DNA of 53,632 nt from Candidatus Daviesbacteria bacterium RIFCSPHIGHO2_02_FULL_36_13. Lineage in GTDB: Bacteria > Patescibacteriota > Microgenomatia > Daviesbacterales > UBA10151. The position numbers and the translations under genes were made by a program. The notes under the pieces were generated by a model that was given only the letters and a program-made list of their open reading frames with translations, ran no database searches and was not told the origin of the DNA. This document shows positions 410 to 37,044 of this stretch, piece after piece (within the stretch, counting starts at the first letter, position 1; each line of letters begins with the position of its first letter). The stretch lies in the NCBI GenBank assembly GCA_001777015.1, contig MFCV01000039.1, forward strand, positions 1 to 53,632. The letters are read 5' to 3'.

Positions 410-994
410 ATGAGTGTATTAGGAATTGATGAAATATTAAGAAGAGTAAAAAAAGAAAAACTCATAGAAAACCTTGGGAAAAGGGAGTTAGAAAATCCTG
501 AAGGGGTGGGGGTGGATTTAAGATTGGGAAGTGTACACAGGATTGTAAGTGGTGGGGCTTTTATAGAAGCAGACCCTTCGACAGGCTCAGGGCAAGTGGT
601 TCTTGGAAAACGTAAGGGAGTGAAAACTGAGCTGGTGGCCGAATTTAAACCCAGAGCTAAAAAACAGAAAGAAATTGTGATAAATCCAGGTGATTATTTA
701 TTAGTTTCCTGTTTTGAAAAATTAAATACCCCAAAAGATTTAATGCCGGTTGTTTTTCCTAGAACTTCTCTTTTTAGAGCAGGACTTCTTTTATTAAATT
801 CTAAAACAGATCCCGGATATAAAGGAACTCTTACTATGGGACTGAAAAATCTTTCAGAGTTTGATGTTAAGTTGCAAATGGGAGCCAGAATTTGCAACAT
901 AGTTTTCTTTAAAATTGAAGGCAAAACAGTATCTTACAGAGGACAGCATCAAGGTGGTAGAATAAGTCCTTCCGATGTTGAACAGCAAGTCTAA
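410..994 (+). CDS. dcd: dCTP deaminase/dUTPase family protein (second paralog)
   Basis: GVDLRLG, PRTSLFRAGL, DPGYKGTL, GARICNIVF and YRGQHQG motifs. Confidence 0.8.
   Translation: MSVLGIDEILRRVKKEKLIENLGKRELENPEGVGVDLRLGSVHRIVSGGAFIEADPSTGSGQVVLGKRKGVKTELVAEFKPRAKKQKEIVINPGDYLLVSCFEKLNTPKDLMPVVFPRTSLFRAGLLLLNSKTDPGYKGTLTMGLKNLSEFDVKLQMGARICNIVFFKIEGKTVSYRGQHQGGRISPSDVEQQV
572..596. repeat. REP-like hairpin in frame in dcd (encodes DPSTGSGQ)
   Basis: GACCCTTCGACAGGCTCAGGGCAAG, 23/25 identical to 35377-35401. Confidence 0.85.
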
Positions 995-1964
995 CAAACA
1001 CCCAGAGTACCAATATTTAGATCTTTTAAAAGAAGCTTTAGAACATGGAGTGAAAAAGGTAGACCGTGGAACAGATATTGTTTTATATTCTCTTTTTGGT
1101 AAACAAACCAGATATGACCTGTCAGAAGGATTTCCACTTTTAACAACTAAAAAAGTTTACTGGAATGGAGTTTTGCAGGAACTGTATTGGTTTATGTCAG
1201 GACAAACAAATATAAAATATTTAGTAGAGAAACAAGTCCATATTTGGGATGATTATCCCTATAAGATTTACAAAGTAAAGAACAAAAATGGAAAAAAGCT
1301 ATTAACTAAAGAAGAGTTTATTGCCAAAATTGCCTCAGATAAAAAGTTTGCCAAACAGTGGGGGGAGCTGCCGAGAATTTATGGAGAGATGTGGAGAAAA
1401 TGGCCAACCAGAAAAAAAGGAAAAACTATTGATCAACTTAAATGGGTAATGAAAGAATTAAAAGATGATCCAGATGCTAAAAATTTAATTGTTAATTCCT
1501 GGAATCCTGAATATTTATATACTATGGCAGAAGGAGGGGATGCTTCACTTTTCCCAATTTGTCACAATATGTATCAGATAAGCAATAGAGGGGGAAAACT
1601 ATCCTTACAGCTTTACCAAAGATCCTCTGACTTATTTTTAGGAGTGCCTTTTAATATTGCCTCTTATGCGCTGTTAACAATTGTCCTTGCTAAAATTGCA
1701 GGACTTAAACCCGGGGAATTTATCCATACTTTTGGAGATGTGCATATTTATGAAAATCATATCCCACAAGTTATGGAGCAATTAAAAAGAAAGCCTAAGC
1801 CCTTTCCCAAAATTAAACTAAGCTCAAAAATTAAAAGTATTGATGATTTTAAACCAGAGCTTGTTACTCTGGAAGGTTATGATCCGCACCCTTCAATGAA
1901 AGCAGAGTTAACAGTAGCTGGTGGATTATATGATCCCTCAACTGGTAAAATGGCAGGACTATAA
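975..1964 (+). CDS. thyA: Thymidylate synthase
   Basis: DRGT, GFPLLTTKK, catalytic PICH, YQRSSDLFLGVPFNIASY, GDVHIYENH. Confidence 0.97.
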   Translation: MLNSKSNKHPEYQYLDLLKEALEHGVKKVDRGTDIVLYSLFGKQTRYDLSEGFPLLTTKKVYWNGVLQELYWFMSGQTNIKYLVEKQVHIWDDYPYKIYKVKNKNGKKLLTKEEFIAKIASDKKFAKQWGELPRIYGEMWRKWPTRKKGKTIDQLKWVMKELKDDPDAKNLIVNSWNPEYLYTMAEGGDASLFPICHNMYQISNRGGKLSLQLYQRSSDLFLGVPFNIASYALLTIVLAKIAGLKPGEFIHTFGDVHIYENHIPQVMEQLKRKPKPFPKIKLSSKIKSIDDFKPELVTLEGYDPHPSMKAELTVAGGLYDPSTGKMAGL

Positions 1965-1968
1965 GAAC

Positions 1969-2804: not shown

Positions 2805-2822
2805 GGTGATCAAGGAAAACTT

Positions 2823-5786: not shown

Positions 5787-6941
5787 GTGGCCAAGCTGCT
5801 TACGATATTTACACTTATTTTAGCCGTAGTTTTATTCCCGCCGGCTGCTTTAGCTTTAATTTCTAATAATGCTGTACCTGGTGACCGGACGTATCCTATT
5901 AAAAGAGGACTGGAGAATATAATTTATGCTGTTGCCTCTATTACTCCAACTACGAAAGCCTGGTTTTCTGCTGCCAGGTCTGATAGGAGGTTTGATGAAC
6001 TTTCCACTCTTTTTAATCAAAAAAAATCTACTGTCCAAACAATAATAGAACTAGTTAGTCAAACAAAGACAGCTGCAACTCAGATTAAATTTCTGGATAA
6101 TGGGCAGCAGAAAAAAGACCTCCAAAGTAATCTCCAGGCTTCAACACAAAAATATGTAGAAAAACTTAAGGAATATTCGCAAACATCAAGTTCAACTCAG
6201 CAACCTGTGGTTAATCCAACGCCAACCCCCATTCCTACTGTCGCTACTCCAACACCAACACCAACACCAACACAAAACCCAACCCCTCGGCCTACGTCAA
6301 CTCCAACTCCGAGACCTGGTGCTACAGCAACTCCAACACCGACAGCAACTCCTGTGCCTACAGCTACTCCTGTACCTACAGCTAATCCAACAGTTGCTCC
6401 AACTCCGGTTGCAACACCTGTGCCTACTCCTGCTCCTACACCAGTTCCCATACCATCTGAGATAGAGAGAGACGATTGTTTCAACCAATATCTTATTCTT
6501 ACCCCTCCAAATTGGGAAGGATGGGGAGCCTGTGAGTTAGCAAAAGTTAATACAGGATTAGTTACCACTTCTTCTAATGATACAAATAACAGGTCTGGTG
6601 GTGGTATTGGTGCTAGTTCATTGAATGGTGAGGCTCAAGTTGTACCTACCGGTAGAATAGTTACCTCATCAGTTGTTAATGGTCTGGCTACTATTTCTGC
6701 TTATTGGTCCAATTTTGATTCAAAGGCTGTGATTTGTGTTGCAACCCCAGGGGTAAGTGGAGGAGTTGAGAGGGTTTTCGCCAGCGGAAATGGGCCAAGT
6801 GGTAATTTGAGTTCGGATACAGGTAGTGGAGGAAGTGGTTGGATTTCGCCAGGGACTAGCTATACATTTAAACTTCATAGTTCTCCCATAATTGATTGTA
6901 GCGGTCCGGAAGAGGCTACTGTTGTAGTTACCGGCCCTTAA
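5787..6941 (+). CDS. Exported DUF5667-like protein with a Pro/Thr linker
   Basis: N-terminal TM helix, AVPGDRTYPIKRGLE motif, helical domain, long PT repeat and a beta-rich C-terminal domain. Confidence 0.7.
   Translation: MAKLLTIFTLILAVVLFPPAALALISNNAVPGDRTYPIKRGLENIIYAVASITPTTKAWFSAARSDRRFDELSTLFNQKKSTVQTIIELVSQTKTAATQIKFLDNGQQKKDLQSNLQASTQKYVEKLKEYSQTSSSTQQPVVNPTPTPIPTVATPTPTPTPTQNPTPRPTSTPTPRPGATATPTPTATPVPTATPVPTANPTVAPTPVATPVPTPAPTPVPIPSEIERDDCFNQYLILTPPNWEGWGACELAKVNTGLVTTSSNDTNNRSGGGIGASSLNGEAQVVPTGRIVTSSVVNGLATISAYWSNFDSKAVICVATPGVSGGVERVFASGNGPSGNLSSDTGSGGSGWISPGTSYTFKLHSSPIIDCSGPEEATVVVTGP
6215..6455 (+). repeat. Low-complexity (PT)n/(PTATPV)n coding repeat
   Basis: Tandem ccaaca/cctact units encoding PTPTPT...PVPTATPVPT. 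Confidence 0.85.
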
Positions 6942-6963: not shown

Positions 6964-8691
6964 ATGAAATATTCAAAGCTTTTTGGAAAAACTATCAAGG
7001 AAACGCCTAGTGATGCAACTTTAATTTCCCATAAACTGCTTTATAAAGGCGGATTCCTGCGTGAATCAACTGCTGGTAGGTATTACCTTTTGCCTTTAGG
7101 ACTAAAAGTCCAGCAAAAAATTCAAAAAATAATTAAAGAAGAGATGGATTCTGCTGAAGCACAAGAATTAATTACTCCAGTTTTACATCCTAAAGCTTTA
7201 TGGGAAGAAACTAATAGAACTAATTCTGTGGGGTTTGAACTAATGAGTATTAAAGATAGAAATGAATTTGAATTTGTTTTAGGCGGAACAGCAGAGGAAA
7301 TGTTGGTAGATTTAGTTAGAAAATTTCAACTAAGTTACAAAGATTTACCTGTTAATTTATATCAATTTTCTATTAAATTTAGGGATGAATTAAGAGCTAG
7401 GGGTGGTTTGCTTAGAGTCAGGGAATTTTTAATGAAAGATGCTTACTCATTTCACGTCTCAGAAGAAGATTTTAAGAAAGAATATGAAAATATGAAAAAA
7501 ACTTATACCAAAATCTTTGAAAGATTGGGTTTAAAAACAATAATTGTTGAATCTGATAATGGTTATATTGGCGGCGAATATTGTCATGAATTTGTAGTGG
7601 AATCAGAGGTTGGTGAGAGTAGGTTTTTAGTTAATCCTGATGGAAGTTATGCAGCTCATGAAGATGTGGTTAAATTTGTGCCTGAAAAGAAGAATATAGC
7701 TGAAAAAGAGGAATCTTTAAAAGAGGTTGAAGCAGTGAGAGGTAAGACTATGGAGGATGGTGCAAAATTTCATAAACTTCCACTTTGGCAGCAGATAAAA
7801 GACGTTTTATTTGTAGATGAAAAAGGTAGATTTATTCTTTCAATAATTAGAGGAGATTATGATGTAAATGAAACCAAGCTTAAGCATATTATTAAGGCAT
7901 ACCAACTCCGTCACGCTACTGAAGATGAAATAAGAGAAAAGATTCATTCAGAACCTGGATTTATTTCCCCTGTTGGAATCAAAGAAATTGTTAAAAAGGG
8001 TATAGAAATTATTATTGTGGCTGATGAAACACTCTCCACTGTTAAAAATTCTTATGGTGGAGCCAATAAAAAGAACAGGGATCTTTTAAATATGAATATG
8101 GGAAGAGATTACAAGCCAGATATTACTTCGGACATAGCTTTAGCAAGAGAGGGAGATTTGGCTCCAGATGGGAGTGGTCCATTAAAAGAAAAAAGAGGGA
8201 TTGAGGTGGGGAATATTTTCCAGCTAGGATTCCATTATTCTTCAAAAATGAAAGGGGCTGAGTTTACAGATGCTGATGGCAGTAAAAAACCATATTATAT
8301 GGGCTGTTATGGAATTGGATTGGGTAGAAGCTTAGCAACGATAGTAGAAGTATTTCATGATGATAAAGGAATAATTTGGCCAGAGAGTGTAGCTCCATAT
8401 CAAGTACATCTAATAGGGCTGGATATGGATGAAGCTGAGAAGGTATATAAGCGAAGCTTGAAAACCTCTGAAGAGGTTTATAAATCCCTTCTAGCAGAAG
8501 GAATTGAAGTCCTTTTTGATGATAGGGATGTCTCTGCTGGAATTAAATTTACAGACGCAGATTTAATAGGAATTCCATATCGGGTTGTAGTTTCCAAAAG
8601 AAATGAAGGAAAATTAGAAATTAAAAGAAGAGATAAAGGTGAAACTGAATTTAAAACACTTGGACAACTCCTAAGTCTGGTTTCTCATTGA
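6964..8691 (+). CDS. proS: Proline--tRNA ligase (with editing domain)
   Basis: KFRDELRARGGLLRVREFLMKDAYSF, GIEVGNIFQLG, MGCYGIG, FTDADLIGIP. Confidence 0.97.
   Translation: MKYSKLFGKTIKETPSDATLISHKLLYKGGFLRESTAGRYYLLPLGLKVQQKIQKIIKEEMDSAEAQELITPVLHPKALWEETNRTNSVGFELMSIKDRNEFEFVLGGTAEEMLVDLVRKFQLSYKDLPVNLYQFSIKFRDELRARGGLLRVREFLMKDAYSFHVSEEDFKKEYENMKKTYTKIFERLGLKTIIVESDNGYIGGEYCHEFVVESEVGESRFLVNPDGSYAAHEDVVKFVPEKKNIAEKEESLKEVEAVRGKTMEDGAKFHKLPLWQQIKDVLFVDEKGRFILSIIRGDYDVNETKLKHIIKAYQLRHATEDEIREKIHSEPGFISPVGIKEIVKKGIEIIIVADETLSTVKNSYGGANKKNRDLLNMNMGRDYKPDITSDIALAREGDLAPDGSGPLKEKRGIEVGNIFQLGFHYSSKMKGAEFTDADGSKKPYYMGCYGIGLGRSLATIVEVFHDDKGIIWPESVAPYQVHLIGLDMDEAEKVYKRSLKTSEEVYKSLLAEGIEVLFDDRDVSAGIKFTDADLIGIPYRVVVSKRNEGKLEIKRRDKGETEFKTLGQLLSLVSH
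8448..8483. repeat. TAAGC-GAA-GCTTG hairpin element in frame in proS
   Basis: TAAGCGAAGCTTG-A-AAACCTC-TGAA-GAGGTTT-A-TAA, with TATAA repeated 33 nt apart. Confidence 0.75.
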
Positions 8692-8725: not shown

Positions 8726-9835
8726 ATGATACAGAAAAATATTAATAAATTACCTAAATCTGTGGTTGAGGTAACTGTAACTGCTCCATGGGCAGATATA
8801 TCTGCTACCTGGGATCAGACTTTACAAAGATTATCAGCTGATGTAGAAATAGCAGGTTTTAGGAAAGGTCAGGTTCCTATCAACATGGTTGAAACTCAGC
8901 TTGGATCCAAACTTCAGGATGAAGTATTAAAAACTGCCATGCCAAATTTTTTAATAGAAGCTCTTAAAGGTACTGATGTGGTACCAATTGATTATCCAAA
9001 ATATGATCTAGTTAATTTTGTTAAAGGACAAGGTATTCAATTTAAAGCAACTATTACTAATAGACCTGCTGTCAGCGTAGGAAACTACAAAACTATTAAA
9101 ACAGTCAGACCTGCTATTAAGCCTGTAACTGATGAAGAAGTAGGAAAAGTTTTAGACGATCTTTATAAAAGATGGAAAACTAGGCAGCCTGCAGTTAACA
9201 ATCCACAGCCTGCAGCTACACAAAATACACCAGCTGGGTCTGGATCTCTAAATTTCCAAAAGAGTGAGATTGCTTCGTCGCCTGCGGCTCCTCGCAATGA
9301 CGGAGTGGCTGAAGCGCCCGATGATACTTTTGCTAAAGCTATGGGGGCAACATCTTTAGTTGACCTTAAGGATAAAATCAGAAAAGATTTAGAAGCCAAT
9401 GTTAAATACAATAATGAACTTGACTATGAAGAAGCAATCTTGCAGGAAGTTGAGAAGATCACTACTGTTGAGCTGCCTGATATTTTAATTGCTGATGAGC
9501 TAAATAGGATGCTTGTTTCACTTCAAAGGAGAGTAGCAGACATGGGACTTCTTTTAGAGGATTATTTAAAAGGACAAAATAAAACTTTAGAGCAAATTAA
9601 GCAGGAATGGAAGCCACAGGCAGAGAAAAATGTCAGAATGGAATTAGGTTTAGCTGATATCGCAAGACAGGAAAATGTCACAATTTCTGACCTTGAACTT
9701 CAGGCAGAAGTTGATAAAATCACTGATGCCAAAGTCAAAAAACAATTTGAATCACAAGAGCCAAGATTGCACCTAAGGCATGCTCTCCGCCAAACCAGAA
9801 CCTTAGATCTTCTCAAAAAGATGGTAGGAGGTTAA
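8726..9835 (+). CDS. tig: Trigger factor (FKBP domain apparently absent)
   Basis: IAGFRKGQVP ribosome-binding motif and a C-terminal chaperone domain. The middle is a low-complexity linker. Confidence 0.9.
   Translation: MIQKNINKLPKSVVEVTVTAPWADISATWDQTLQRLSADVEIAGFRKGQVPINMVETQLGSKLQDEVLKTAMPNFLIEALKGTDVVPIDYPKYDLVNFVKGQGIQFKATITNRPAVSVGNYKTIKTVRPAIKPVTDEEVGKVLDDLYKRWKTRQPAVNNPQPAATQNTPAGSGSLNFQKSEIASSPAAPRNDGVAEAPDDTFAKAMGATSLVDLKDKIRKDLEANVKYNNELDYEEAILQEVEKITTVELPDILIADELNRMLVSLQRRVADMGLLLEDYLKGQNKTLEQIKQEWKPQAEKNVRMELGLADIARQENVTISDLELQAEVDKITDAKVKKQFESQEPRLHLRHALRQTRTLDLLKKMVGG
9266..9302. repeat. CGTC-type REP-like element in frame in tig (encodes EIASSPAAPRND)
   Basis: Reverse strand reads CGTCATTGCGAGGAGCCGCAGGCGACGAAGCAATCTC, with an ATTGC/GCAAT stem. 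GC-rich. Confidence 0.85.
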
Positions 9836-10211: not shown

Positions 10212-10409
10212 ATGTCAATAATAGTTAAAGCAAATCCTGGTGACAGTAGCGATTCTGTTATCAGAAAATTTCAAAAAAAGGTTATTGCTGAAGGTTTAGT
10301 TCAGGAAATCAGAGACAGGTCTGTTTATAAAAAGCCTTCACAACGCCGTCAGGAATATTTGGCTGAAAAACGCCGAAAAATAATGAGAGCCAAAAGATAT
10401 GGTGGATGA
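10212..10409 (+). CDS. rpsU: 30S ribosomal protein S21
   Basis: 65-aa basic protein with IRKFQKKV and YKKPSQRR. Upstream of yqeY as usual. Confidence 0.9.
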   Translation: MSIIVKANPGDSSDSVIRKFQKKVIAEGLVQEIRDRSVYKKPSQRRQEYLAEKRRKIMRAKRYGG

Positions 10410-10863
10410 TATTGCAACTGCTCTAAAGCAAGCTCAGCTCGACAGGGATGAGACTAAAGTATCAACCCTAAGACTTCTTTTATCTGAAATTAAAAATGCA
10501 GAGATTGCTAAAGGTGGAGAGCTTTCCAACGAAGATATAATTTCTGTTGTTCAAAAAGAGATTAAGAAAAGAAAAGAAGCAGCTATTGGTTTTAGATCCG
10601 GAGGTAGGGAAGAATCTGCCTTAAAGGAAGAGGCAGAATCAAAAGTGCTGGAAGTTTATCTCCCTGCTCAAATGGAAGTTGACCAGTTGACTAAAATAAT
10701 TGAAGACACTATAAGCGAAGCTTGCCAGCTCGCGCTGGTAACTGGTTCAGAAAAGCCCTCTTTACAAGACATGGGTAGGATAATAAGATTAGTTATGGAT
10801 AAGGTAAAAGGTCAGGCAGATGGTGGAACAGTTAGTTTATTAGTTAAACAGAAGCTTTCATGA
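10399..10863 (+). CDS. yqeY: GatB/YqeY domain protein
   Basis: LRLLLSEIKN, KKRKEA, YLPAQM, DMGRII, GQADG. Confidence 0.92.
   Translation: MVDDIATALKQAQLDRDETKVSTLRLLLSEIKNAEIAKGGELSNEDIISVVQKEIKKRKEAAIGFRSGGREESALKEEAESKVLEVYLPAQMEVDQLTKIIEDTISEACQLALVTGSEKPSLQDMGRIIRLVMDKVKGQADGGTVSLLVKQKLS
10712..10741. repeat. TAAGC-GAA-GCTTG hairpin element in frame in yqeY
   Basis: TAAGCGAAGC-TTGCCAGC-TCGC-GCTGGTAA, with TAA repeated 27 nt apart. Shares an exact 15-mer with the proS copy. Confidence 0.8.
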
Positions 10864-11270
10864 TAAATATAATTGTAAATTCAGATCCCAGATACAACAT
10901 TAACAAAGATGCTATTAAAATGGCAGTTTCAGATGTTTTGCAAAAGCATCATATCGGGGGAAAGGTTGAGCTTGGGGTAAGTATTGTAGGTGACAGGAAA
11001 ATGCATGAGCTTAATAGAAAATACAGAGGTATTGATTCCACAACAGATATTTTGTCTTTTGCCCTGGAAGATTCAAATCCTGGTAGCTTACAGCATATTC
11101 CAAGAATTGGATTTGTAGCTGCACCTGATAGATGGCTTAGACTTGGGGATATTATTATTTCTTATCCACAGGTAATGGAAGATGCATCAATGGATGGAAT
11201 TTCTGTTGATCAGGAGATAAAAACTTTAGTTGAACATGGTGTAAACCACCTGCTTGGAATCCATCACTGA
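10860..11270 (+). CDS. ybeY: rRNA maturation RNase YbeY
   Basis: LNRKYRG, TDILSF, LGDIIIS, HGVNHLLGIHH. Confidence 0.93.
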   Translation: MINIIVNSDPRYNINKDAIKMAVSDVLQKHHIGGKVELGVSIVGDRKMHELNRKYRGIDSTTDILSFALEDSNPGSLQHIPRIGFVAAPDRWLRLGDIIISYPQVMEDASMDGISVDQEIKTLVEHGVNHLLGIHH

Positions 11271-11271
11271 T

Positions 11272-12846
11272 ATGAGTGCATTTTATTTAAAATACAGACC
11301 CCAGTCTCTGGGAGATTTAATTGGACAGGAAGCCTCTAAAAAGGCACTGATGTCAGCTTTTCAAAATAATAAACTATCTCATGCCTATCTTTTTGTAGGA
11401 CCAAGAGGAACAGGTAAAACTTCCACAGCCAGAATTTTAGCCAAAATGGTTAACTGTTTGGATAAGGATGCGCCTTGTAATAAGTGTACTATTTGTACCT
11501 CTATCACTGATGGATCTAATCTTGACCTGATAGAAATTGATGCTGCCTCAAACAGAGGAATAGAAGATATAAGAGCTTTAAGGGAAAAAATAAAACTTGC
11601 CCCATCGTCTCTTAAGAAAAAAGTCTACATAATTGATGAGGTTCATATGTTAACTACCGAGGCTTTTAATGCACTTTTGAAAACTTTGGAAGAGCCACCT
11701 GCCCATGCTCTTTTTATTCTAGCTACCACAGATGCTTCTAAAATGCCTGCAACGATACTTTCCAGGGTTCAAAGATTAGATTTTAAACTGGCAAATCCTT
11801 CAGAACTTTTGGAGGCTTTGCAAAAAATAATAAAGTCAGAAAAAATTGATATTGATGAAGAGGCTCTAAAATTACTTATTAAAAAATCAGAAGGAAGTTT
11901 TCGGGATGGGGTTAAACTTTTAGATCAAGCCTCCTCCATAGGAGGCAAAATAACTGCTGAAGTTTTGGAAAAAAATCTAAAATCCTCTAACTTTGAAGAG
12001 ATTTTAAGTTTAATGGAAGCTATCAGCAAAAAAGACACAGAAGCATCCCTGCTTTGGATTAATAAACAAACTGAAGAGGGATCTGACAGCAAGGATTTAA
12101 TTTTATCCTTAATGGAAAGTTTAAGATCCCTAATTTTTATAAAGAATGGATTGGGTAGTCAATTGGTAGAGTCAAAAATGATGGCAGAACAGTATCAAAG
12201 TTTAGTCAAAGTTTCAGAAAATTTTACAAATTCTGATTTAACTAAAAATCTGGATAGTTTACAAAAAGCCTTAGAAAAATTGAAAACAACATCAATTCCC
12301 TCACTTCCACTAGAGGTGGCAGTAGTGGAAATATGTTCCGAAGAAAAAATTTCTATTAAGAAAAGCGAAGACGTCGCTGCCAGTGCAGTCCAATCTCTGT
12401 CTGAGCAAGGCGAGTCCGTAGCAGACGAGCCGGTCCGCCAACTGGCGGATGCGAGTTTGATTGGCGAGCACAGCGATGTCGAGCTAACACCATCAGCTGA
12501 TATATCTTTATTAAAAGATAAATGGACTTATGTTTTAGAAACCATCAGGCCATATAATTTTTCGCTGGAAGCACTGCTTAGATCTATAAGTGTTAGAGAG
12601 TGTACTCAAACTTTAGTTTTGATGGAGGTTCCTTATTCTTTCCATCAAAGGATTTTGGAGGCCCCAAAAAATAGGGATCTTTTGGAATCTATTTTTTCTG
12701 AAATTTTAGGAAGAACAATTAAAGTCTCTACTGTCTTAGGCAATAGACCTTCAAGAACAGAAGATGTAGCTAATATAGAGATAGCAGCTGATGATGAAAT
12801 AATCAGAGTAGCTGCAGAAATCTTTAACTCTGACTCTGTAAATTAA
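11272..12846 (+). CDS. dnaX: DNA polymerase III subunit gamma/tau
   Basis: KYRPQ, GPRGTGKTS, zinc-binding Cys residues, EIDAASNRG, IIDEVHML. Start placed at ATG 11272. Confidence 0.97.
   Translation: MSAFYLKYRPQSLGDLIGQEASKKALMSAFQNNKLSHAYLFVGPRGTGKTSTARILAKMVNCLDKDAPCNKCTICTSITDGSNLDLIEIDAASNRGIEDIRALREKIKLAPSSLKKKVYIIDEVHMLTTEAFNALLKTLEEPPAHALFILATTDASKMPATILSRVQRLDFKLANPSELLEALQKIIKSEKIDIDEEALKLLIKKSEGSFRDGVKLLDQASSIGGKITAEVLEKNLKSSNFEEILSLMEAISKKDTEASLLWINKQTEEGSDSKDLILSLMESLRSLIFIKNGLGSQLVESKMMAEQYQSLVKVSENFTNSDLTKNLDSLQKALEKLKTTSIPSLPLEVAVVEICSEEKISIKKSEDVAASAVQSLSEQGESVADEPVRQLADASLIGEHSDVELTPSADISLLKDKWTYVLETIRPYNFSLEALLRSISVRECTQTLVLMEVPYSFHQRILEAPKNRDLLESIFSEILGRTIKVSTVLGNRPSRTEDVANIEIAADDEIIRVAAEIFNSDSVN
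12364..12485. repeat. Long GC-rich fold-back element in frame in the dnaX linker
   Basis: About 61% GC by hand count. Stems 12370-79/12471-80, 12390-95/12459-64, 12399-403/12422-26, and nested TCCGCCA-AC-TGGCGGA. Confidence 0.8.
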
Positions 12847-12890: not shown

Positions 12891-12897
12891 GCAAGTT

Positions 12898-19126: not shown

Positions 19127-19180
19127 TTGACCCATTCGATTGCACTCAGGGTCAATAGTGAGTTAAATCGAACTATTGAC
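19127..19180. repeat. Intergenic REP-like doublet
   Basis: TTGACCC-ATTCGATTGCACTCA-GGGTCAA overlaps GTCAATAG-TGAGTTAAATCGAA-CTATTGAC. Same TTCGA..CTCAGG core as the dcd and purQ copies. Confidence 0.75.
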
Positions 19181-28691: not shown

Positions 28692-30092
28692 ATGGGAACC
28701 GAAATTAAAGAAAAGTGCGGAATATTCGGTGTATACGGGAAAGACTTTCAGGCAGCCCGCTTAGTTCATCCAGGCCTTTGGGCACTTCAACACAGAGGTC
28801 AAGAATCTTCAGGAATTGCATCATCAGACGGTAAAAAGATTTATATTCACAAAGGTATGGGGTTAGTTGCTGCTGTTTTTGCAGAAGAAGATTTAAAAAA
28901 GCTAAAAGGATATTTGGCAATTGGTCACAACCGTTATTCAACATCAGGTGATTCTAAACTTGAACATGCCCAACCCGTTATAGAAAGACTTAAAAACGGA
29001 GAGTTAATTGCTGTGGCTCACAATGGTACTTTACCATCCACAAAAAAAATAGAAGAATTTTTAAAACAAAGAAAGATAAATATTTCTGGTGCAAACGATT
29101 CGGAGATGATTGCTAAAGCCGTAGGGATTTTTATGTCTGAAGGTAACTCTTTAGAGCAAGCAGTTAGAAAAGCATATCCGTTGTTTACTGGAGTGTTTTG
29201 TCTTCTTTTAATGGACAAAAGTAAAATTGTTGCAGTTAGGGATAGTTTTGGGATAAGACCTCTTAGTTTGGGTAGATTAAACGGGGGATTTGTAGTTGCG
29301 TCAGAAACTTGTGCGTTAGATATTATAGGGGCTGAATTTATTAGAGATATAAAGCCTGGCGAAATGGTAGTACTTCATGAAAAGGGTATTAAGAGTTTTC
29401 AACTTGAGAAGGGTCAAGAAAGATTGGATGTTTTTGAATTTGTTTACTTTGCAAGACCGGATAGTATCTTAATGGGTAGAAGTGTTGATCAAGTAAGACA
29501 AGATATGGGGGTGCAGCTTGCTAAAGAATTTAAGTTGAAGGCAGATGTTGTAGTACCGATACCTGATTCAGGAATTCCTGCTGCCTTAGGTTTTTCTAGA
29601 GAGTCAGGAATACCCTTTTATCCAGGGCTTATCAAAAATCGTTACATTCACAGAACATTCATTATGCCGGAACAACACGCTAGAAATCAGGGAGTAAAAT
29701 TAAAACTTAATCCATTAAAACATATTATAGAAGGAAAAATTGTCATACTGATTGATGATTCAATAGTTAGAGGAACTACATCGAAACAAATTATTGATAT
29801 GATAAAGTCTGCTGGAGCTAAAAAAATATACTTTTTAATTGCATCTCCTCCTTATAAATATCCGGACTTTTATGGAGTTGATACCCCAAAACAAACAGAT
29901 TTAATTGCAGCTAGAATGAGTGTTAAAGAAATCGAGAAGGAAATAGGTGTTGATTCATTGCACTATCTTTCTTATGCAGGACTCTTAAAGGCTATTGGAA
30001 TCTCTGAGGATTTACTTTGTACGTCATGTTTTACAGGGAATTATCCAGTTGATATTGGTGAAAGGGTAAAAGAAATTAAAAGAATTGATTAA
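28692..30092 (+). CDS. purF: Amidophosphoribosyltransferase
   Basis: Propeptide + CGIFG, LQHRGQES, GHNRYST, DDSIVRGTTS. Confidence 0.98.
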   Translation: MGTEIKEKCGIFGVYGKDFQAARLVHPGLWALQHRGQESSGIASSDGKKIYIHKGMGLVAAVFAEEDLKKLKGYLAIGHNRYSTSGDSKLEHAQPVIERLKNGELIAVAHNGTLPSTKKIEEFLKQRKINISGANDSEMIAKAVGIFMSEGNSLEQAVRKAYPLFTGVFCLLLMDKSKIVAVRDSFGIRPLSLGRLNGGFVVASETCALDIIGAEFIRDIKPGEMVVLHEKGIKSFQLEKGQERLDVFEFVYFARPDSILMGRSVDQVRQDMGVQLAKEFKLKADVVVPIPDSGIPAALGFSRESGIPFYPGLIKNRYIHRTFIMPEQHARNQGVKLKLNPLKHIIEGKIVILIDDSIVRGTTSKQIIDMIKSAGAKKIYFLIASPPYKYPDFYGVDTPKQTDLIAARMSVKEIEKEIGVDSLHYLSYAGLLKAIGISEDLLCTSCFTGNYPVDIGERVKEIKRID

Positions 30093-30698: not shown

Positions 30699-32001
30699 TT
30701 TGAAAACCGTGTTAGTAATTGATGGAGGAGGAAGGGGTGCTGTTTTAGTTGATAAATATGGGCAGTCTCAATCAGTTGGAAGAATTCTAGTTGTGCCAGG
30801 AAATGATTTAATGGCGATTAATACAAGCAAAGATGTTATTACATACCCTAATTTAAAAACAACATCAATCAAGGAAATTTTAGAAATCGTAGAAAAAGAA
30901 GATGTTAATTTAGTAGATGTTGCACAAGATAATGCAGTAGAAGCAGGGTTAGTAAATGAATTAGAAAAATTAGGGATTGCAGTTATTGGCCCAACTAAAG
31001 AGGCCGGGCAAATAGAATGGGATAAAGCCTGGGCCAGAAATTTTATGAAAAAATACGGGATTCCTTCTCCGGAATATCATGTTTTTAATTCTGAAGAGGC
31101 GGGATTAGATTTTATTAAAAAGAACCCTGGGAAAAAATGGTTTATAAAAGCAGCAGGACTTGCTGAAGGAAAAGGAGTAATTCCTGCTGAAAATTTTAAT
31201 AAAGCAATTAAGGCAATAAAAGAAATGAGTAAATTTGGAAAGGCCGGTGAAACCTACCTCTTGGAAGAATGGTTAGAAGGGGAGGAGTTTTCTGCATTTG
31301 CTCTTTGTGACGGAGGAAGCTTTAAATTAGTAGGATGTGCTCAGGATCATAAAAGAGTTAATGACGGTGATAAGGGTTTAAATACGGGAGGAATGGGTTG
31401 TGTTTCCAATCCAAAAGTTGTCACAAAATATATTACTTCTCAGATTAATCAAATCTTCAAAAAAACAATTGAAGGATTGAACAATGAAAGAAGACCCTAT
31501 AAAGGAATTTTATATTTAGGAGGAATGGTTCTAGATAAAAAAGTTTCTGTTATTGAATTTAATGCCAGATGGGGAGATCCCGAAGCGCAAGTTATTTTGC
31601 CATCGATCCAAAATGATATCTATAAAGTTAGTATGGCAATTGTTTCAGAGAGTTTAAAGCAGCTAAAAATTAGAATTGATGAAAACACCAGAGTTGTTGT
31701 AGCGGGTACTTCAAAAGGTTATCCAGGTGATTATTCTAAGGTAAAAGGGAAAAAAGTTTTTGGAATAAGTGAAGTTCAAAAGATTGAAGGAATAAAGATT
31801 TATGGAGCTGGGATCAAAAAAAGTGAAAAAAATTGGGTAGTAAACGGAGGCAGAGTCTTATACATAGCAGGAGAAGGAAAAAATATTATTGATGCAAGAA
31901 AAAAAGCTTACGGGGCAATGGCATTAATTAGTATCGAAGGAAATAACTTACACTATAGATCTGACATAGGATTTCGGGATTTAGAAAGACTTCGAAAATG
32001 A
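30691..32001 (+). CDS. purD: Phosphoribosylamine--glycine ligase
   Basis: KAAGLAEGKGV, QDHKR, NTGGMG, EFNARWGDPE, YRSDIG. Confidence 0.97.
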   Translation: MSNLKTVLVIDGGGRGAVLVDKYGQSQSVGRILVVPGNDLMAINTSKDVITYPNLKTTSIKEILEIVEKEDVNLVDVAQDNAVEAGLVNELEKLGIAVIGPTKEAGQIEWDKAWARNFMKKYGIPSPEYHVFNSEEAGLDFIKKNPGKKWFIKAAGLAEGKGVIPAENFNKAIKAIKEMSKFGKAGETYLLEEWLEGEEFSAFALCDGGSFKLVGCAQDHKRVNDGDKGLNTGGMGCVSNPKVVTKYITSQINQIFKKTIEGLNNERRPYKGILYLGGMVLDKKVSVIEFNARWGDPEAQVILPSIQNDIYKVSMAIVSESLKQLKIRIDENTRVVVAGTSKGYPGDYSKVKGKKVFGISEVQKIEGIKIYGAGIKKSEKNWVVNGGRVLYIAGEGKNIIDARKKAYGAMALISIEGNNLHYRSDIGFRDLERLRK

Positions 32002-34682
32002 TACACAAAGTGAGGGTGGCACCAAGAAATTCAAAAATTGAAAAAAGAGATGCTTTTAAAAAAGTAAAAGTCTATAGATTAGAAGGAATTAGTTTGGAGG
32101 ATACAAAAATACTGGCAGAAAAAGTTTTATCAGAAGAATTAACTCAAATTTGCTCCATTGATAAGCAACTTGTTAAAGAAAAAGTGATAGAAGTTGCCTA
32201 CAAACCAGGAGTTATGAATCCTGAGGTTTCCTCAATAATGAAAGCTGCTTCCGATTTAGGAATTAAATTGCTTGCTGCTGACTCATCATATGAGTATGTT
32301 TTACCTATTAATCAGCATAATTTGTATAACCCTTTGACTGAATATATTATGGAGGAAGAACCAGAAACATTGGTGATCAAAGGAGTTCCAGGAAAAACTG
32401 AAATTGTTCCTCTTAGAAAAATGAATGAAGAGGAGTTATTGGAAATTTCAAAAGATAAACTATTTCTAAACAAAGATGAAATGAAAGTTATTCAAAATTA
32501 TTTTGAGGATTTAAAAAGAGATCCAACTGATTTAGAACTGGAAACTTTAGCACAAACCTGGAGTGAACATTGTGCACACAAAACTTTTAAGGCAAAAATA
32601 ATTTTAGATGGAAAGGAAAAGGAACCACTGTTTAAAAGATTAAAAGATGAAGCTTTAAAACATGACAAAAATATTGTTTCAGCATTTGTGGATAATGCTG
32701 GAGTGATGGATTTTTATGATGGATGGGCCATTAATGGAAAAGCTGAAACTCACAATGCTCCATCTGCAATTGAACCATATGGTGGAGCTATGACAGGGAG
32801 TGGTGGAGTTTTTAGAGATGTTGTAGCAACTGGCCAGGGAGCTAAAGCTGTTGTTTCAACAGATATATTCTGTCTTGCTGATCCTAATATGGATAAAGCT
32901 AAATTACCAGAAGGAACACTTCCACCGGACTATATCTTAAAAAGAGTTGTTGCAGCTGTACGGGATTACGGAAACAGAATTGGAATTCCAACCAATAATG
33001 GATCATTTCACTTTCATGATGATTTTAGAGCCAAGCCAATTGTTTTAGTTGGGGCATATGGAATTTTGCCTAAAGATAAAGCTCAAAAGGGAGAGCCAAG
33101 AATTGGTGATATAGCAGTTGTGATTGGAGGAAAAACAGGAAGAGATGGAATTCACGGAGCTACTTTTTCTTCGGGAGAAATGAGTGATAGAACAATTTCT
33201 GTTAATGCCACAGCAGTGCAAATTGGCAATGCTATTGAAGAAAAAATAACTTTTGATGCCATACTTGAAGCCCGTGATAAAAATTTAATAACAGCTGTGC
33301 AAGATCTAGGCGCTGGTGGATTTTCCTCAGCTATAGGTGAGATGGGAGAAATAACAGGAGTAACTGTGCATCTAGAAAAAGCGCCTTTAAAATATCAAGG
33401 CCTTTCTCCTTGGGAGATTTGGGTGTCAGAATCACAAGAGCGGATGTTAATAATTTTATCTCCAAACAATTTAAATGATTTTTTAAAAATTTGTAAAAAA
33501 TATAATGTTGAGGCTACAGAAATTGCTAAGTTTGATGGAACTAAAAGACTACAAGTTTTTTATGGAAAAGAAAAAGTAGGAGATTTGGACATGAAATTTC
33601 TATATGGAGGACTTCCTCAAAGAGTAATGAAGGCAATTTCTCCTCGTCATTCTGAACGAAGTGAAGAATATAATTTATATCCTTCGGCTATGCCTCAGGA
33701 TGACAATGGATGGATAAAGCTTTTGGAGAAAACATTATCATCTGGAGATGTAAATTCCAAGGAATCGATACTTAGATTATATGATCATAATGTTCAGGGA
33801 ACTAGTGCCTTGCCCCCATTTGTAGGAGTTGATATGGATGGACCAACAGATGCTGCAGTTATAAAACCCTTGCTTGATAAGCCTTATGGTTTAATTGTTT
33901 CTCATGGATTAAGTCCAAAGAAAACCTTAGAGGATTCCTATGAAGGAACTATTTGGTCTGCTACTGAGGCCATCAGTAATTATGCGGCAGTTGGGGGAGA
34001 TTATAAAGAAGCTTGCCTAATAAATAATTACATTTGGCCTTTCCCAGATCCACAGTGGCTTGGAAAATTAGATTCCTGTGTAGACGGCGTGGTTGATTTT
34101 ATGAAAGCTTTGAAAATCCCAGTTATTTCTGGAAAGGATAGTTTGTCTGCAACATACAGGTCTTCAGACGGAATTGTTTTACATAGTCCTCCAACGCTTG
34201 CTATGTCTGTTTTTGGAAAAATACCTGATGTTAAAAAAACAGTTTCTTCTGATTTTAAAAAAGTCGGGTCAGTTATTGTATTGGTAGGTAAGCAGGATAT
34301 ACGAGTTGATCTTAAGGTTTTACCGAAAGTGTTAGAGGCAATGTATAAGGCAATAAACACAGGAAAAGTTTTAGCCTCTCATGATATTTCAGAAGGGGGA
34401 CTTGTAACTGCTATTTTTGAGATGTGTGTTGGAGGAAATTGCGGAGCCTTTATAAAAGTAGAAAGTGGTGAATTACTTTTAGAAACTGCTGGATGTTTTA
34501 TTGTTGAAGTAGAAAATGAAGAAACTGCTAATGAATTATTTAAAGGAATACCTTACAAGATTTTGGGTACTACTACAAAAGATGAGAAGTTATCAGTTGA
34601 GGGATTATTCAGTGCAGATATGAAGCAATTACAAGAAGCATGGAGTAAACCAATGAAGGAGATATTCGGATGGAACAGGTGA
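31998..34682 (+). CDS. purL: FGAM synthase PurL with a fused N-terminal PurS-like region
   Basis: WSEHCAHK, KAETHN, GRDGIHGA, DLGAGG, SESQERM, HDISEGG. N-terminal YKPGVMNP. Confidence 0.95.
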   Translation: MIHKVRVAPRNSKIEKRDAFKKVKVYRLEGISLEDTKILAEKVLSEELTQICSIDKQLVKEKVIEVAYKPGVMNPEVSSIMKAASDLGIKLLAADSSYEYVLPINQHNLYNPLTEYIMEEEPETLVIKGVPGKTEIVPLRKMNEEELLEISKDKLFLNKDEMKVIQNYFEDLKRDPTDLELETLAQTWSEHCAHKTFKAKIILDGKEKEPLFKRLKDEALKHDKNIVSAFVDNAGVMDFYDGWAINGKAETHNAPSAIEPYGGAMTGSGGVFRDVVATGQGAKAVVSTDIFCLADPNMDKAKLPEGTLPPDYILKRVVAAVRDYGNRIGIPTNNGSFHFHDDFRAKPIVLVGAYGILPKDKAQKGEPRIGDIAVVIGGKTGRDGIHGATFSSGEMSDRTISVNATAVQIGNAIEEKITFDAILEARDKNLITAVQDLGAGGFSSAIGEMGEITGVTVHLEKAPLKYQGLSPWEIWVSESQERMLIILSPNNLNDFLKICKKYNVEATEIAKFDGTKRLQVFYGKEKVGDLDMKFLYGGLPQRVMKAISPRHSERSEEYNLYPSAMPQDDNGWIKLLEKTLSSGDVNSKESILRLYDHNVQGTSALPPFVGVDMDGPTDAAVIKPLLDKPYGLIVSHGLSPKKTLEDSYEGTIWSATEAISNYAAVGGDYKEACLINNYIWPFPDPQWLGKLDSCVDGVVDFMKALKIPVISGKDSLSATYRSSDGIVLHSPPTLAMSVFGKIPDVKKTVSSDFKKVGSVIVLVGKQDIRVDLKVLPKVLEAMYKAINTGKVLASHDISEGGLVTAIFEMCVGGNCGAFIKVESGELLLETAGCFIVEVENEETANELFKGIPYKILGTTTKDEKLSVEGLFSADMKQLQEAWSKPMKEIFGWNR
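33645..33705. repeat. CGTC-type REP doublet in frame in purL (encodes RHSERSEEYNLYPSAMPQDD)
   Basis: Inverted arms GTCATTCTGAACGAAGTGAAGAATAT and ATATCCTTCGGCTATGCCTCAGGATGAC. Confidence 0.85.
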
Positions 34683-35458
34683 AAGTTTGTATCCTACAAT
34701 CTGATGGGACTAATTGTGATAATGAACTCTTTTATGCATTTAAGAAAGTTGGGGGAAGTCCTGAGTTTGTACATGTTAATGAACTTAGAGACAAATCCAG
34801 AAGTTTGAAAGATTTTGATATCCTGGCTTTACCTGGAGGGTTTTCTTATGGAGATGATATTGCATCTGGAAAAATTTTAGCAATTGAACTTATTAGTTTT
34901 CTAAAAGCTGAGATAGAAAAATTTAAGAGTGGAGGAGGATTAATTATTGGGATTTGCAATGGATTTCAAACTCTTGTTAGGACAGGCCTTTTACCTTTCG
35001 GAAATTTAGGAAAAATGGATGCAACTTTAGATAATAATGACAGCGGGCATTTTGAATGTAGATGGATAGATCTAAAATCTGAAAAAAGTAAATGTGTATT
35101 TTTAAAAAATTCTTATAAAGGACATTTTGCAGTTAATCATGGAGAAGGAAAATTCTTTTCGCAACCTTCGGTTATTAAAAAAATTGAGGATCAAAATTTA
35201 GTAGTTTTTAGATATGTAGATGAGTCTGGAAATCCCACTCAAGAATATCCTGAAAATCCCAATGGATCTATAAATGCTATAGCTGGAGTAACAGATCCAA
35301 CAGGAAGAATATTGGGAATGATGCCACACCCGGAAAAATTTGTTGACAGCACTCAATATCCAAACTGGAGAAGAGAGACCCTTCGACAAGCTCAGGACAA
35401 GCCTCATGGGCTTTTTATCTTTGAAGATATGGTAAATTATGTTAAGGAGGATAAATGA
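34670..35458 (+). CDS. purQ: FGAM synthase glutaminase subunit
   Basis: GTNCD, PGGFSYGD, GICNGFQ, HGEG, NPNGS, MMPHPE. Confidence 0.97.
   Translation: MEQVKVCILQSDGTNCDNELFYAFKKVGGSPEFVHVNELRDKSRSLKDFDILALPGGFSYGDDIASGKILAIELISFLKAEIEKFKSGGGLIIGICNGFQTLVRTGLLPFGNLGKMDATLDNNDSGHFECRWIDLKSEKSKCVFLKNSYKGHFAVNHGEGKFFSQPSVIKKIEDQNLVVFRYVDESGNPTQEYPENPNGSINAIAGVTDPTGRILGMMPHPEKFVDSTQYPNWRRETLRQAQDKPHGLFIFEDMVNYVKEDK
35377..35401. repeat. REP-like hairpin in frame in purQ (encodes TLRQAQDK)
   Basis: GACCCTTCGACAAGCTCAGGACAAG, 23/25 identical to 572-596 but read in another frame. Confidence 0.85.
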
Positions 35459-37044
35459 TAATTTTAGTTGATTTTGGGGGACAAACTGCACATCTTATCG
35501 GTAGAAGAATAAGAGAGCTTGGTGTGGATTGTTTAATAGTTTCACCAGATGAAGCTTTAGATAGAAGTAGGGATAAAAATCCAAAAGGGATTATATTTTC
35601 CGGTGGACCCGCCTCAGTTTATGAAAAAGATTCACCTACTATTGATGAGAAAATCTTTAACCTTGAAATTCCTATTTTAGGAATATGTTACGGTGAACAA
35701 TTAATAGCACATCTTTTAGAAGGAGAAGTGAAGTCGGGAAATAAAAAGGAATATGGACCTGCTGTTTTAAGTGGAGTAAATATTGATAAATCACAATTAC
35801 TTTCTGGACTACCCCAGGAATCTAATGTTTGGATGAGCCATGGGGATGAGGTAGTAAGAGAACCTGAGGGGTTTGAAACATATGGTGTAACAGCAACCAT
35901 CCCACATGCCGTAATAGAAAATAAGAGTAAAAAAATATATGCCATTCAATTTCATCCTGAAGTTGTACATACGCAGTTTGGTACACAAATTTTAGAAAAC
36001 TTTTTAAAGATTTGTGGAATTACTCCTAAGAAAGTAGAAATCAATGAAGACTATGTAAATAATCTGGTTAAAGATATTAAGGACTCAGTAGGAGATGAGA
36101 AAGCGATCTGTGCATTATCTGGTGGGGTTGATTCATCTGTTGCGGCTTTACTGGTTCACAAGGCCATTGGTGAAAATCTGGAATCTATTTATATCGATTC
36201 TGGTTTAATGAGAGAGGGTGAAACAGAAAACCTGGATCATGTTTTTAAAGAACACTACCAAATGAATGTCAAAATTGTAGATGCCAAAAAGGAATTTTTG
36301 AATGCATTAAAAGGGATTAGGGATCCTGAAGAAAAAAGGAAAGCTATTGGAAAAACTTTTATAGATTGTTTTGAGGCAGAGGCAGCTCGCCCCGCCTCCG
36401 GCGGTAAAAGCCTTGGTGCGAAGTTTCTGGTACAGGGAACAATATATCCTGATGTTATTGAAAGTGCTGGATCCAAGCATGCAAAGACAATGAGTATACC
36501 CAGTTCAGAAACTGGGGTATCCTCTTCTCACGCTGTGAGAATTAAGTCTCATCATAATGTTGGAGGACTTCCGGAAAATATGAATTTAGTACTTATAGAA
36601 CCTTTAAGAAATTTTTATAAAGATCAGGTTAGAAAGATTGGAGAAATCTTAGGGTTACCAGAATCTATAACAGAAAGACAACCATTTCCAGGACCTGGTC
36701 TTGCTGTCAGAATTATTGGAGAGGTAACTGAAGAAAAGTTAGATTTGTTAAAAAAGGCAGATAAAATTGTCACAGATGAACTAGATGGTATTAAACTTTG
36801 GCAAGCCTTTGCTGTTTTTACTGGAATTAAAACAACAGGAGTTAGGGGAGATGAAAGAGCATATGGGGAAACAATAGCAATTAGGGCAATTGAGGCAACA
36901 GATGCAATGAGTGCCAACTTTGCAAAATTGGATTATAAACTTCTAGATAAAATTTCAACAAGGATTGTCAATGAAATACCAGAAGTTAATAGAGTGGTTT
37001 ACGACATCACCAACAAACCCCCTGCCACTATGGAATGGGAATAG
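35455..37044 (+). CDS. guaA: GMP synthase (glutamine-hydrolysing)
   Basis: SGGP, GICYG, QFHPEV, SGGVDS, IKSHHNVGG, KPPATMEWE. Confidence 0.98.
   Translation: MIILVDFGGQTAHLIGRRIRELGVDCLIVSPDEALDRSRDKNPKGIIFSGGPASVYEKDSPTIDEKIFNLEIPILGICYGEQLIAHLLEGEVKSGNKKEYGPAVLSGVNIDKSQLLSGLPQESNVWMSHGDEVVREPEGFETYGVTATIPHAVIENKSKKIYAIQFHPEVVHTQFGTQILENFLKICGITPKKVEINEDYVNNLVKDIKDSVGDEKAICALSGGVDSSVAALLVHKAIGENLESIYIDSGLMREGETENLDHVFKEHYQMNVKIVDAKKEFLNALKGIRDPEEKRKAIGKTFIDCFEAEAARPASGGKSLGAKFLVQGTIYPDVIESAGSKHAKTMSIPSSETGVSSSHAVRIKSHHNVGGLPENMNLVLIEPLRNFYKDQVRKIGEILGLPESITERQPFPGPGLAVRIIGEVTEEKLDLLKKADKIVTDELDGIKLWQAFAVFTGIKTTGVRGDERAYGETIAIRAIEATDAMSANFAKLDYKLLDKISTRIVNEIPEVNRVVYDITNKPPATMEWE
36385..36405. 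repeat. GC hairpin in frame in guaA (encodes ARPASGG)
   Basis: CCGCC-TCC-GGCGG at 36392-36404 interrupts FEAEA|KSLGAKFL. Confidence 0.75.
36489..36542. repeat. Double-hairpin 51-nt in-frame insertion in guaA
   Basis: GAGTATACCCAGTT-CAGA-AACTGGGGTATCCTC followed by TTCTCAC-GCT-GTGAGAA, with AAT repeated 51 nt apart. Confidence 0.8.

Follow-up and report, generated by a model that had tools for sequence, protein, structure and literature searches.

Short GC-rich repeat units lie in frame inside housekeeping genes of a Daviesbacteria genome

What are the short, GC-rich segments that lie inside housekeeping genes of Candidatus Daviesbacteria bacterium RIFCSPHIGHO2_02_FULL_36_13 without breaking their reading frames, and what copies them there? 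We analyzed a stretch of 53,632 nucleotides from this member of the candidate phyla radiation (CPR; Patescibacteria), hereafter the window (contig MFCV01000039.1 of assembly GCA_001777015.1). The window is contig C39 of the genome, here called G000, which comprises 963,675 bases in 49 contigs at ~36% G+C, with 95.9% estimated completeness; genomes of the same family measure 0.6-1.2 Mb. Loci of relatives or of other genomes are given L numbers. An earlier note, made from the letters of the window, had described hairpin-forming inserts in dcd, proS, tig, yqeY, dnaX, purL, purQ and guaA (twice), possibly also in cysS, and had proposed that several families of non-autonomous elements, mobilized in trans, add peptides to surface loops.

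We aligned each protein with its orthologs from genomes of the same family, and found that eight sites are lineage-specific in-frame additions: one each in dcd, proS, tig, yqeY, dnaX and purQ, and two in guaA (Table 1). Most same-family relatives are empty at these sites. The dcd loop is empty in 21 of 23 relatives; the element is common to one (L174, in genome G043), where it differs from the window copy by one base, and the dcd event is therefore older. A different palindromic insert, read SEPASSAKRGE, occupies the same loop in one further relative (L187). The proS product is 5 amino acids (aa) longer in the window than in 6 of 7 relatives, and a possible duplication of GGTWTATAA was seen there, although it is weak. 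The 9 aa of yqeY are missing in 10 of 11 relatives, the remaining one (L010) having its own, different 9-aa insert at that spot; a copy like that of yqeY also lies in frame within an aminotransferase gene of another CPR genome (L074). In purQ, the element replaces ~9 nt for a net gain of 12 nt (4 aa), and it is present in 0 of 20 relatives; the same loop holds PPTGRQG in L023. The tig linker is hypervariable, with a short, 'empty' form in 3 of 11 relatives and family-A-like DNA at the same spot in L002. In each of L002 (tig), L010 (yqeY), L023 (purQ) and L187 (dcd), the loop used in the window has been struck independently by other GC-rich palindromic DNA.

A separate observation concerns the trigger factor itself. 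Residues ~146-210 form a short, hypervariable Gln/Pro/Ser-rich linker, as they do in relatives, and this linker sits in the middle of the protein, where a peptidyl-prolyl isomerase domain is expected.

The 7-aa insert of guaA was found in none of 17 relatives, and the 17-aa insert (guaA-2) in none of 16; the flanks of both are highly conserved. Both inserts coincide with gaps relative to the solved GMP synthase structure 5tw7. In an AlphaFold model of GuaA (mean pLDDT, the model's confidence score, 77), the guaA-2 residues 346-362 fall inside loop 330-371 at pLDDT <50, and the first insert, residues 311-317, comes just after helix 291-311. Both inserts are thus predicted to occupy non-regular, low-confidence loops, and the proposal that surface loops receive the peptides is borne out to this extent, for the two guaA sites. 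The guaA inserts are not an assembly artefact, for four further sequencing runs, each from a different study, yielded contigs that match the window identically across them: record 13 of X6 (36054-36700) bridges both, records 21 and 22 of X8 cover the two inserts, and record 31 of X9 and record 5 of X11 cover the second alone. The contigs of the other runs showed no presence/absence polymorphism within the same strain. Contigs of related organisms break near element borders (e.g. 35374-35378 and 36541) and are not readable as clean empty sites.

Two of the genes named in the earlier note dropped out. purL contains no window-specific insert relative to the relatives that cover the site, and in cysS we found only a 7-aa indel, common to 2 of 5 relatives (two genera) and with a faint family-B-like look, which makes it an old, decayed candidate. 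A GC-rich stretch at 28736-28792 was also rejected as an insert; it lies in purF and is conserved protein sequence.

We also ran a blind census of 38 window genes with at least three orthologs in five syntenic relatives; 26 inserts in it were lineage-specific and at least 3 aa long. Their mean GC fraction was 0.55, whereas in-frame segments drawn at random from these genes averaged 0.37 (Mann-Whitney p 4e-7). A GC fraction of at least 0.55 was reached by 16 of the 26, versus 9% of the background, and in stem score 8 of the 26 lay above the background's 95th percentile. One recurrent sequence in this set is family A, in the reading (P/H)-S-T-S-S-G-Q.

Table 1. Repeat units and host genes in the window (positions in the 53,632-nucleotide stretch)
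Feature	Position	Strand	Remarks
dcd	410-994		Pfam
Family A 25-mer in dcd	572..596	+	read D-P-S-T-G-S-G-Q; ~5 aa added to loop
proS	6964-8691		Pfam
Family D tag (TATAAGCGAAGCTTG) and 8-bp hairpin in proS anticodon-binding region	8446..8484	+	fold z -2.6
tig	8726-9835		Pfam (Trigger_N and Trigger_C only)
Family B unit in tig inter-domain linker	9266..9303	+	read E-I-A-S-S-P-A-A-P-R-N-D-G; CGTC tag on complementary strand
yqeY	10399-10863		Pfam
Family D tag and CCAGC/GCTGG hairpin in yqeY	10710..10749	+	alignment-defined insert 10723-10749 = 27 nt, 9 aa
dnaX	11254-12846		Pfam
Family C, 80 nt, in dnaX hypervariable linker	12391..12470	+	core palindrome TCCGCCAACTGGCGGA at 12434-12449
Unique hairpin	19127..19155	+	14 nt past stop codon of 2083-aa open reading frame (ORF); only ends family-A-like; z -2.7
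cysS	22732-24093		Pfam
purF-like ORF	28692-30092		Pfam
purL	31998-34682		Pfam
purQ	34670-35458		Pfam
Family A 25-mer in purQ	35377..35401	+	read in other frame, T-L-R-Q-A-Q-D
guaA	35455-37044		Pfam
Family E 21-nt insert in guaA	36385..36405	+	A-R-P-A-S-G-G; CCGCC/GGCGG stem
guaA-2, 51-nt double-hairpin insert in guaA lid loop	36490..36540	+	17 aa; fold z -4.2
Family D copy, intergenic	45380..45397	+	just upstream of start codon
Family D copy, intergenic	53572..53585	+	tag match

To define repeat families, we combined islands of high GC in AT-rich surroundings, a genome-wide BLAST search with short words and a 14-mer census; generic inverted-repeat scans of the window did not single out the elements, because their stems are short. 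Six of the eight confirmed sites belong to multi-copy families, designated A to E. Family A, GACCCTTCGACARGCTCAGGRCAAG, has 9 matches in G000 at ≤3 mismatches, of which 5 are near-exact (2 in the window and 3 elsewhere), and 0 in shuffled sequence. Family B, GAGATTGCTTCG-variable-CTCGCAATGACG, whose complement starts CGTCATTGCGAG, has 27 matches, including 16 exact 12-mers, against 0 in shuffles; it is built on an ATTGC/GCAAT stem with a variable inner hairpin and often forms inverted dimers, with paired units 60-75 nt apart at C25:28940/29000, C33:5333/5395, C41:926/1000 and C48:56928/56993. Family C consists of two 80-nt copies of 96% identity, the second (C25:15516-15595) apparently intergenic; its core is the palindrome TCCGCCANCTGGCGGA, found at 3 further sites. 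The tag of family D, TATAAGCRAAGCTTG, has 52 matches at ≤2 mismatches, versus 5.5 in shuffles, and family E has 2 exact 21-mers, that of guaA and one at C49:21868. These counts agree with the claim that several families of short repeats occur at high density in a CPR-like genome. Two members of the original list, guaA-2 and the hairpin at 19127, are single. Two of the three intergenic copies described earlier (45380 and 53572) are related to in-gene elements, as copies of family D, and the third, at 19127, shares only its A-like ends.

Three further observations concern these families. The heptamer GCGAAGC, which as DNA can form an unusually stable mini-hairpin, recurs in families B and D and in the L187 dcd insert. 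In an amidase gene (C36:6288-7643, residues ~220-230), a family B unit (E-I-A-S...V-A-M-T) has a piece of family A (P-S-T-S-L-R) nested in it, so that one element sits inside another and both inside a gene. Lastly, a tandem array at C44:17545-17648 has a 30-nt repeat unit that includes a family-D-like motif.

Across G000, ORFs contain 9 of 9 family A matches, 24 of 27 of family B and 26 of 52 of family D (19 being intergenic and 7 at ORF edges). Because our ORF calls are crude and label 92.5% of the genome as coding, these counts indicate no depletion from genes, rather than enrichment. Pfam domains (E ≤1e-5) were recognized in 17 of 20 host ORFs outside the window, among them UvrD helicase, topoisomerase I, RecJ, Fpg, LeuRS, PheRS beta, amidase, MurD, YchF, formyltransferase, GlmU-like, polyprenyl synthetase, WecG and three Wzy_C. 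Genes elsewhere in G000 that bear elements in frame thus include topA, uvrD, recJ, fpg, leuS, pheT, gatA, murD and ychF. In WecG and Fpg an entire family B dimer is read through, and WecG gains ~29 aa. The sense orientation of family B has one frame with TGA, and that frame was not seen among the listed intragenic copies.

The families extend well beyond G000. Within the window's own family, the family C core occurs in 30 of 51 genomes (0 to ~40 sites) and the family B tag in 33 of 51 (0-35 copies); reversed-pattern controls gave 0 matches in the 51 genomes for the C core and 2 single matches for the 12-nt B tag. Across the phylum, 63 of 301 genomes contain exact matches to the 17-mer core of family A, at up to 21 copies, with 0 everywhere for the reversed pattern. 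In a species-level genome collection, at least 120 stretches carry the exact 25-mer of this family. By record titles, the matches listed include Pseudomonadota, Actinomycetota (among them cultured Nocardioides and Cryobacterium), Chloroflexota, Bacteroidota, Planctomycetota, Acidobacteriota, Gemmatimonadota, Spirochaetota and many CPR groups. Among viral contigs the 25-mer was found in only 2 stretches, and there is therefore no sign of a phage vehicle. We conclude that the phenomenon is real and broader than the earlier note had it: genome-wide, family-wide and, for family A, across phyla.

We used the instances of family A to delimit the unit. There are 125 different flanks among 126 instances, and conservation ends at -1 (C in 53%) and +1 (C in 61%); the unit is therefore ~25-27 nt. 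Of the 79 instances whose frame stays open for 40 codons or more to either side, 57 are read as D-P-S-T-G/S-S-G-Q, as are 23 of 28 at loci of ≤50% G+C, counts that may be inflated by a search pattern in which GAC was fixed at the 5' end. From their translated flanks, we take several instances in other phyla to be in-frame inserts in recognizable enzymes. Tandem expansions of sub-repeats of family A also occur in other phyla. As an additional observation, the 25-mer stands at the same position of genes that we take, again from translated flanks, to be orthologs in L064 and L113 (Actinomycetota) and in L073 and L097 (Portnoybacteria-titled); these pairs suggest that the insert was inherited from a common ancestor or else that certain sites are preferred.

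What could mobilize such units? As the earlier note had stated, no mobilizer is encoded in the window. Elsewhere in G000, we found two Pfam Y1_Tnp matches above the cut-off, at C27:26114-26605 (164 aa) and C7:16907-17548 (214 aa). Both proteins show the pattern YH(V/I)xNRG ... HFH(L) ... Y and have a weak, sub-threshold NCBIfam match to the repetitive extragenic palindrome (REP)-associated tyrosine transposase (RAYT). A search of G000 for TnpB (PF07282) and DDE_Tnp_1 (PF01609) gave no match, the GIY-YIG, HNH, IS110 and rve families lying outside that search. Y1_Tnp genes occur in 45 of 51 genomes of the family, at 1-12 copies each, so that RAYT-like Y1 genes are unusually numerous for genomes of ~1 Mb. 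The number of Y1 copies correlates with the combined load of families B and C (Spearman 0.49, p 3e-4, uncorrected for kinship), and both families are absent from 5 of 6 Y1-negative genomes. Each Y1 gene of G000 has its own hairpin on both sides, GGGGTTGAACCCC in C27 and CCACCCCAAGGGTGG in C7; unlike families A-E, these hairpins are low in copy, with 4 and 5 matches at ≤1 and ≤2 mismatches, respectively. Two side observations were made at the Y1 loci of G000 and its relatives (L232-L248): private flanking hairpins are followed by a TTGACA-like box, and in L232 a further palindromic insert interrupts one of the flanking hairpins.

On balance, we lean towards the view that the elements are several families of ~20-80 nt, GC-rich, stop-poor, non-autonomous repeats of the REP kind, or of the kind of REPINs (REP doublets forming hairpins), copied widely by Y1 enzymes acting in trans. 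In this explanation, units would be copied to many places in an AT-rich CPR genome of ~1 Mb, essential genes included. The survivors inside genes would be the subset whose length is a multiple of three, that offer a stop-free and preferably Gly/Ser/Pro-rich frame, and that lie in a tolerant loop or linker; as a net outcome, housekeeping proteins would gain 4-29 residues. What we observed directly is multi-copy identity, empty orthologous sites, independent strikes in the loops of relatives, 0-40 sites per sister-genus genome, and open frames. The step in which Y1 transposases (HUH, RAYT/IS200-like) would make the copies from single-stranded DNA is the weakest part of the explanation.

Several results weigh against it. 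The motifs of families A-D were found within 200 nt of 0 of 19 Y1 loci (2 in G000 and 17 in three relatives); the idea that RAYT/IS200 genes would be flanked by the same hairpins therefore failed, and at 12 of the 19 both flanks instead have at least 12 nt of private sequence in common, although one of these matches is AT-rich and trivial. The genome G354 (98% complete) has no Y1 match, yet carries 16 copies of family B, and the correlation between Y1 number and load could reflect general mobile-element load. At guaA and purQ, where the junctions are clean, we saw neither a target-site duplication nor a terminal inverted repeat, and the dcd and purQ events replace native codons instead of purely inserting. 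IS200/IS605 elements target the lagging strand, so that a strand bias would be expected; we found none for family B (13 vs 13) or family D, and 6 vs 1 on few data for family A. The guaA-2 insert has no second copy in G000. The hairpins themselves were in part confirmed: folded as single-stranded DNA and compared with dinucleotide shuffles, 3 of 11 window segments did better (those of proS, guaA-2 and 19127; Table 1), and the other 8, single units of families A and B included, did not. This test covered single units, not dimers, and family A, whose stem is 4 bp long, is a half-site; 'palindromic' thus fits dimers and some units, not every in-gene copy. Finally, the 25-mer of family A is identical across many phyla, unlike REP-RAYT pairs, which are usually lineage-bound in the published descriptions drawn on here. 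The earlier attribution of spread to HUH/RAYT enzymes accordingly holds for the presence and abundance of the enzyme class in the lineage, while the enzymes are tied to the in-gene families by correlation only.

There is another reading, a tentative one that we do not expect but take seriously: family A, perhaps with sister families, may be a pan-bacterial, sequence-invariant cassette of ~25-27 nt, open in five of six frames, that is copied in frame into essential genes of distant phyla without a lineage-specific RAYT, e.g. by a conserved enzyme acting on single-stranded DNA or by a repair pathway. If so, the cassette would be a general, so far undescribed means by which bacterial proteins gain insertions in loops (D-P-S-T-G-S-G-Q and its relatives), and CPR genomes would be the densest place relative to genome size. 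Copying could also be independent of any transposase: at a break or stalled fork, template switching or microhomology-mediated repair would patch in a short GC-rich unit from a copy elsewhere in the genome, and native codons would be partly replaced. The form of the dcd and purQ events, which look like replacement plus insertion, the short junction similarity (native GACAGTGGACAGG vs GACAGGC in the element), the lack of visible duplications and terminal repeats, the truncated or nested units (pieces of 12-27 nt and, in gatA, a family A piece within B), the tandem expansions of family A and the missing cognate transposase at the 19 Y1 loci would all suit such patching. By itself, however, it leaves unexplained the exact 25-mers at 125 flanks across phyla, their sharp ends at -1/+1, the burst-like differences in copy number and the association with Y1 genes, and we think it unlikely.

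The remaining explanations do without copying of selfish units. If the peptides, or mRNA or DNA structures, were selected by the host as flexible linkers, translation pauses or protein-binding sites, then the strong preference for one frame (57 of the 79 copies inside ORFs, taken across phyla, and 23 of the 28 at loci of low GC) and the reuse of the same loops by relatives would follow; yet presence is sporadic, each site being filled in 0-1 of 16-23 relatives, the units occur in host proteins unrelated to one another, identical units also stand between genes, and a frame preference is equally expected from purifying selection on random insertions, the pattern with GAC fixed possibly inflating the bias. 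We regard host selection as quite improbable. More improbable still is homologous recombination with insert-bearing alleles of other bacteria: such gene-segment transfer could account for the same 25-mer in many phyla and for a dcd insert common to one relative, but not for flanks that are ordinary for the lineage, with 70-80% identity to relatives on both sides, or for purQ and guaA inserts found in none of 16-20 relatives. Chance GC-rich indels in variable loops, or chimeras in the assembly of the metagenome bin, are barely credible as a general account. The tig and dnaX sites do lie in low-complexity, hypervariable linkers and guaA-2 is single-copy, but exact multi-copy repeats were expected 0 times in shuffles, reversed-pattern controls were close to nil, and identical contigs came from the four other runs; for families A-E this reading is effectively refuted.

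If these units are actively copied, they would steadily supply even the most conserved proteins of minimal-genome bacteria with small insertions. They would blur ortholog alignments and the gene calls of metagenome bins, and would provide natural 'loop-tolerance maps' for essential enzymes. The identity of 25 bases across phyla, at 125 flanks and mostly in one frame, raises the question of what copies the unit; the recurrent strikes on the same loops in sister genera, together with the 0-40-fold differences in load, make that question testable with existing data.

Other features of the window and the genome were noted in passing. The 2083-aa ORF (12862-19113) adjoins the 3' end of dnaX, and an ortholog is absent from the syntenic regions of the five relatives compared. 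The ORF at 5787-6941 contains ~ten tandem ACNCCA-type repeats (6210-6450), forming a Thr/Pro-rich linker; G+C is locally higher here, and the GC skew is negative. A conserved intergenic element of ~130 nt has 5 copies: at 265-400 of the window, directly upstream of dcd, and at C48:48080-48320, C48:33820-34040, C30:7960-8200 and C11:1240-1460. Its stem shows paired changes between copies (AAATTTGTG...CACAAATTT vs AAATTTTTG...CAAAAATTT), it has no Rfam match, and it may be an undescribed small RNA or leader. No Rfam family reached its gathering threshold in the window, and nine element-rich stretches of G000 gave nothing credible, the single miRNA match (E 0.11) being attributable to chance. Runs of the heptamer TAGGGTA/TAGGGTT occur at a dozen or more loci of G000, including C23:9107, C44:81853, C43:5181, C25:40594 and C28:1692.

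How do these elements compare with known systems? The phenomenon is of a kind already known, that of Rickettsia palindromic elements (RPEs) and intragenic REPs. According to PMC10969869 and PMC3733652, it is the in-frame position of palindromic repeats that characterizes RPEs (Ogata et al. 2000, 2002). These selfish elements have entered housekeeping genes that are unrelated to one another, in a reduced genome where loops are believed to accommodate them; they occur as several families per genome, and have no known linked transposase. The alignments and Pfam hosts described above likewise show in-frame insertion in functional housekeeping ORFs. RPE-1-type elements, however, measure ~100-150 bp, encode a conserved peptide and are confined to Rickettsia, whereas the units found here measure 21-80 nt, are often partial, belong to a CPR genome and, in the case of family A, are sequence-identical across many phyla, a distinction drawn from published descriptions rather than from sequence comparison. 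MITEs, the miniature transposable elements with inverted repeats, such as ERIC, QMITE1 and the Anabaena MITEs are also non-autonomous and occasionally fuse in frame with host genes, but in the same account (PMC10969869) they measure 70-300 bp and have terminal inverted repeats and target-site duplications; neither was seen here at the clean guaA and purQ junctions, and all units except family C (80 nt) are shorter than 70 nt. In the IS200/IS605 type, TnpA inserts 3' of a specific tetra- or pentanucleotide on the lagging-strand template; as for such a target motif, the 125 flanks of family A offer only the C at -1 and the C at +1.

In REPIN-RAYT systems, as far as the descriptions drawn on here go, the RAYT is typically single-copy, vertically inherited and flanked by the abundant REPs themselves. 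The Daviesbacteria genomes resemble these systems in having Y1 HUH genes with flanking hairpins of their own and short palindromic repeats across the genome; they differ in carrying up to 12 Y1 genes per 1 Mb, in the low copy number of the flanking hairpins, in the location of the abundant families A-D away from Y1 loci, and in that families A and B are not predominantly extragenic and half of D lies inside ORFs. The literature that we searched contained no description of these elements in CPR/Patescibacteria, although the family lists of PMC3733652 lay outside the comparison and could already hold A or B; nor did it contain the peptide strings PSTGSGQ, PSTSSGQ, TLRQAQG, FDKLRAN and others.

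Another close parallel is to the REPs that Di Nocera et al. 2013 sorted into GTAG- and CGTC-tagged superfamilies (PMC3733652): GC-rich stem-loops of 20-40 nt, single or in inverted dimers, surveyed mainly in Proteobacteria and predominantly extragenic. That survey also reports intragenic copies in several species, many in replication or repair genes and tRNA synthetases, with dimers that encode 20-30 aa, and concludes that CGTC REPs have no dedicated transposase; the earlier remark that REPs are mostly extragenic thus needs the addition that intragenic GTAG/CGTC REPs were already published. Family B shows the CGTCATTGCGAG tag, inverted dimers, hosts such as topA, uvrD, fpg and pheT, and no repeat-flanked transposase at the 19 Y1 loci; judged by tag, dimers and missing transposase, and not by a match to a published family, it has the features of the CGTC-tagged type. 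It differs in that 24 of its 27 matches lie in ORFs of a 0.96 Mb CPR genome. Relative to these known systems, what is new is the lack of a cognate transposase despite many Y1 genes, the invariance of a unit across phyla with one preferred frame, the shortness of the units, the way in which the same loops are used again and again, and the density inside essential genes of a minimal CPR genome.

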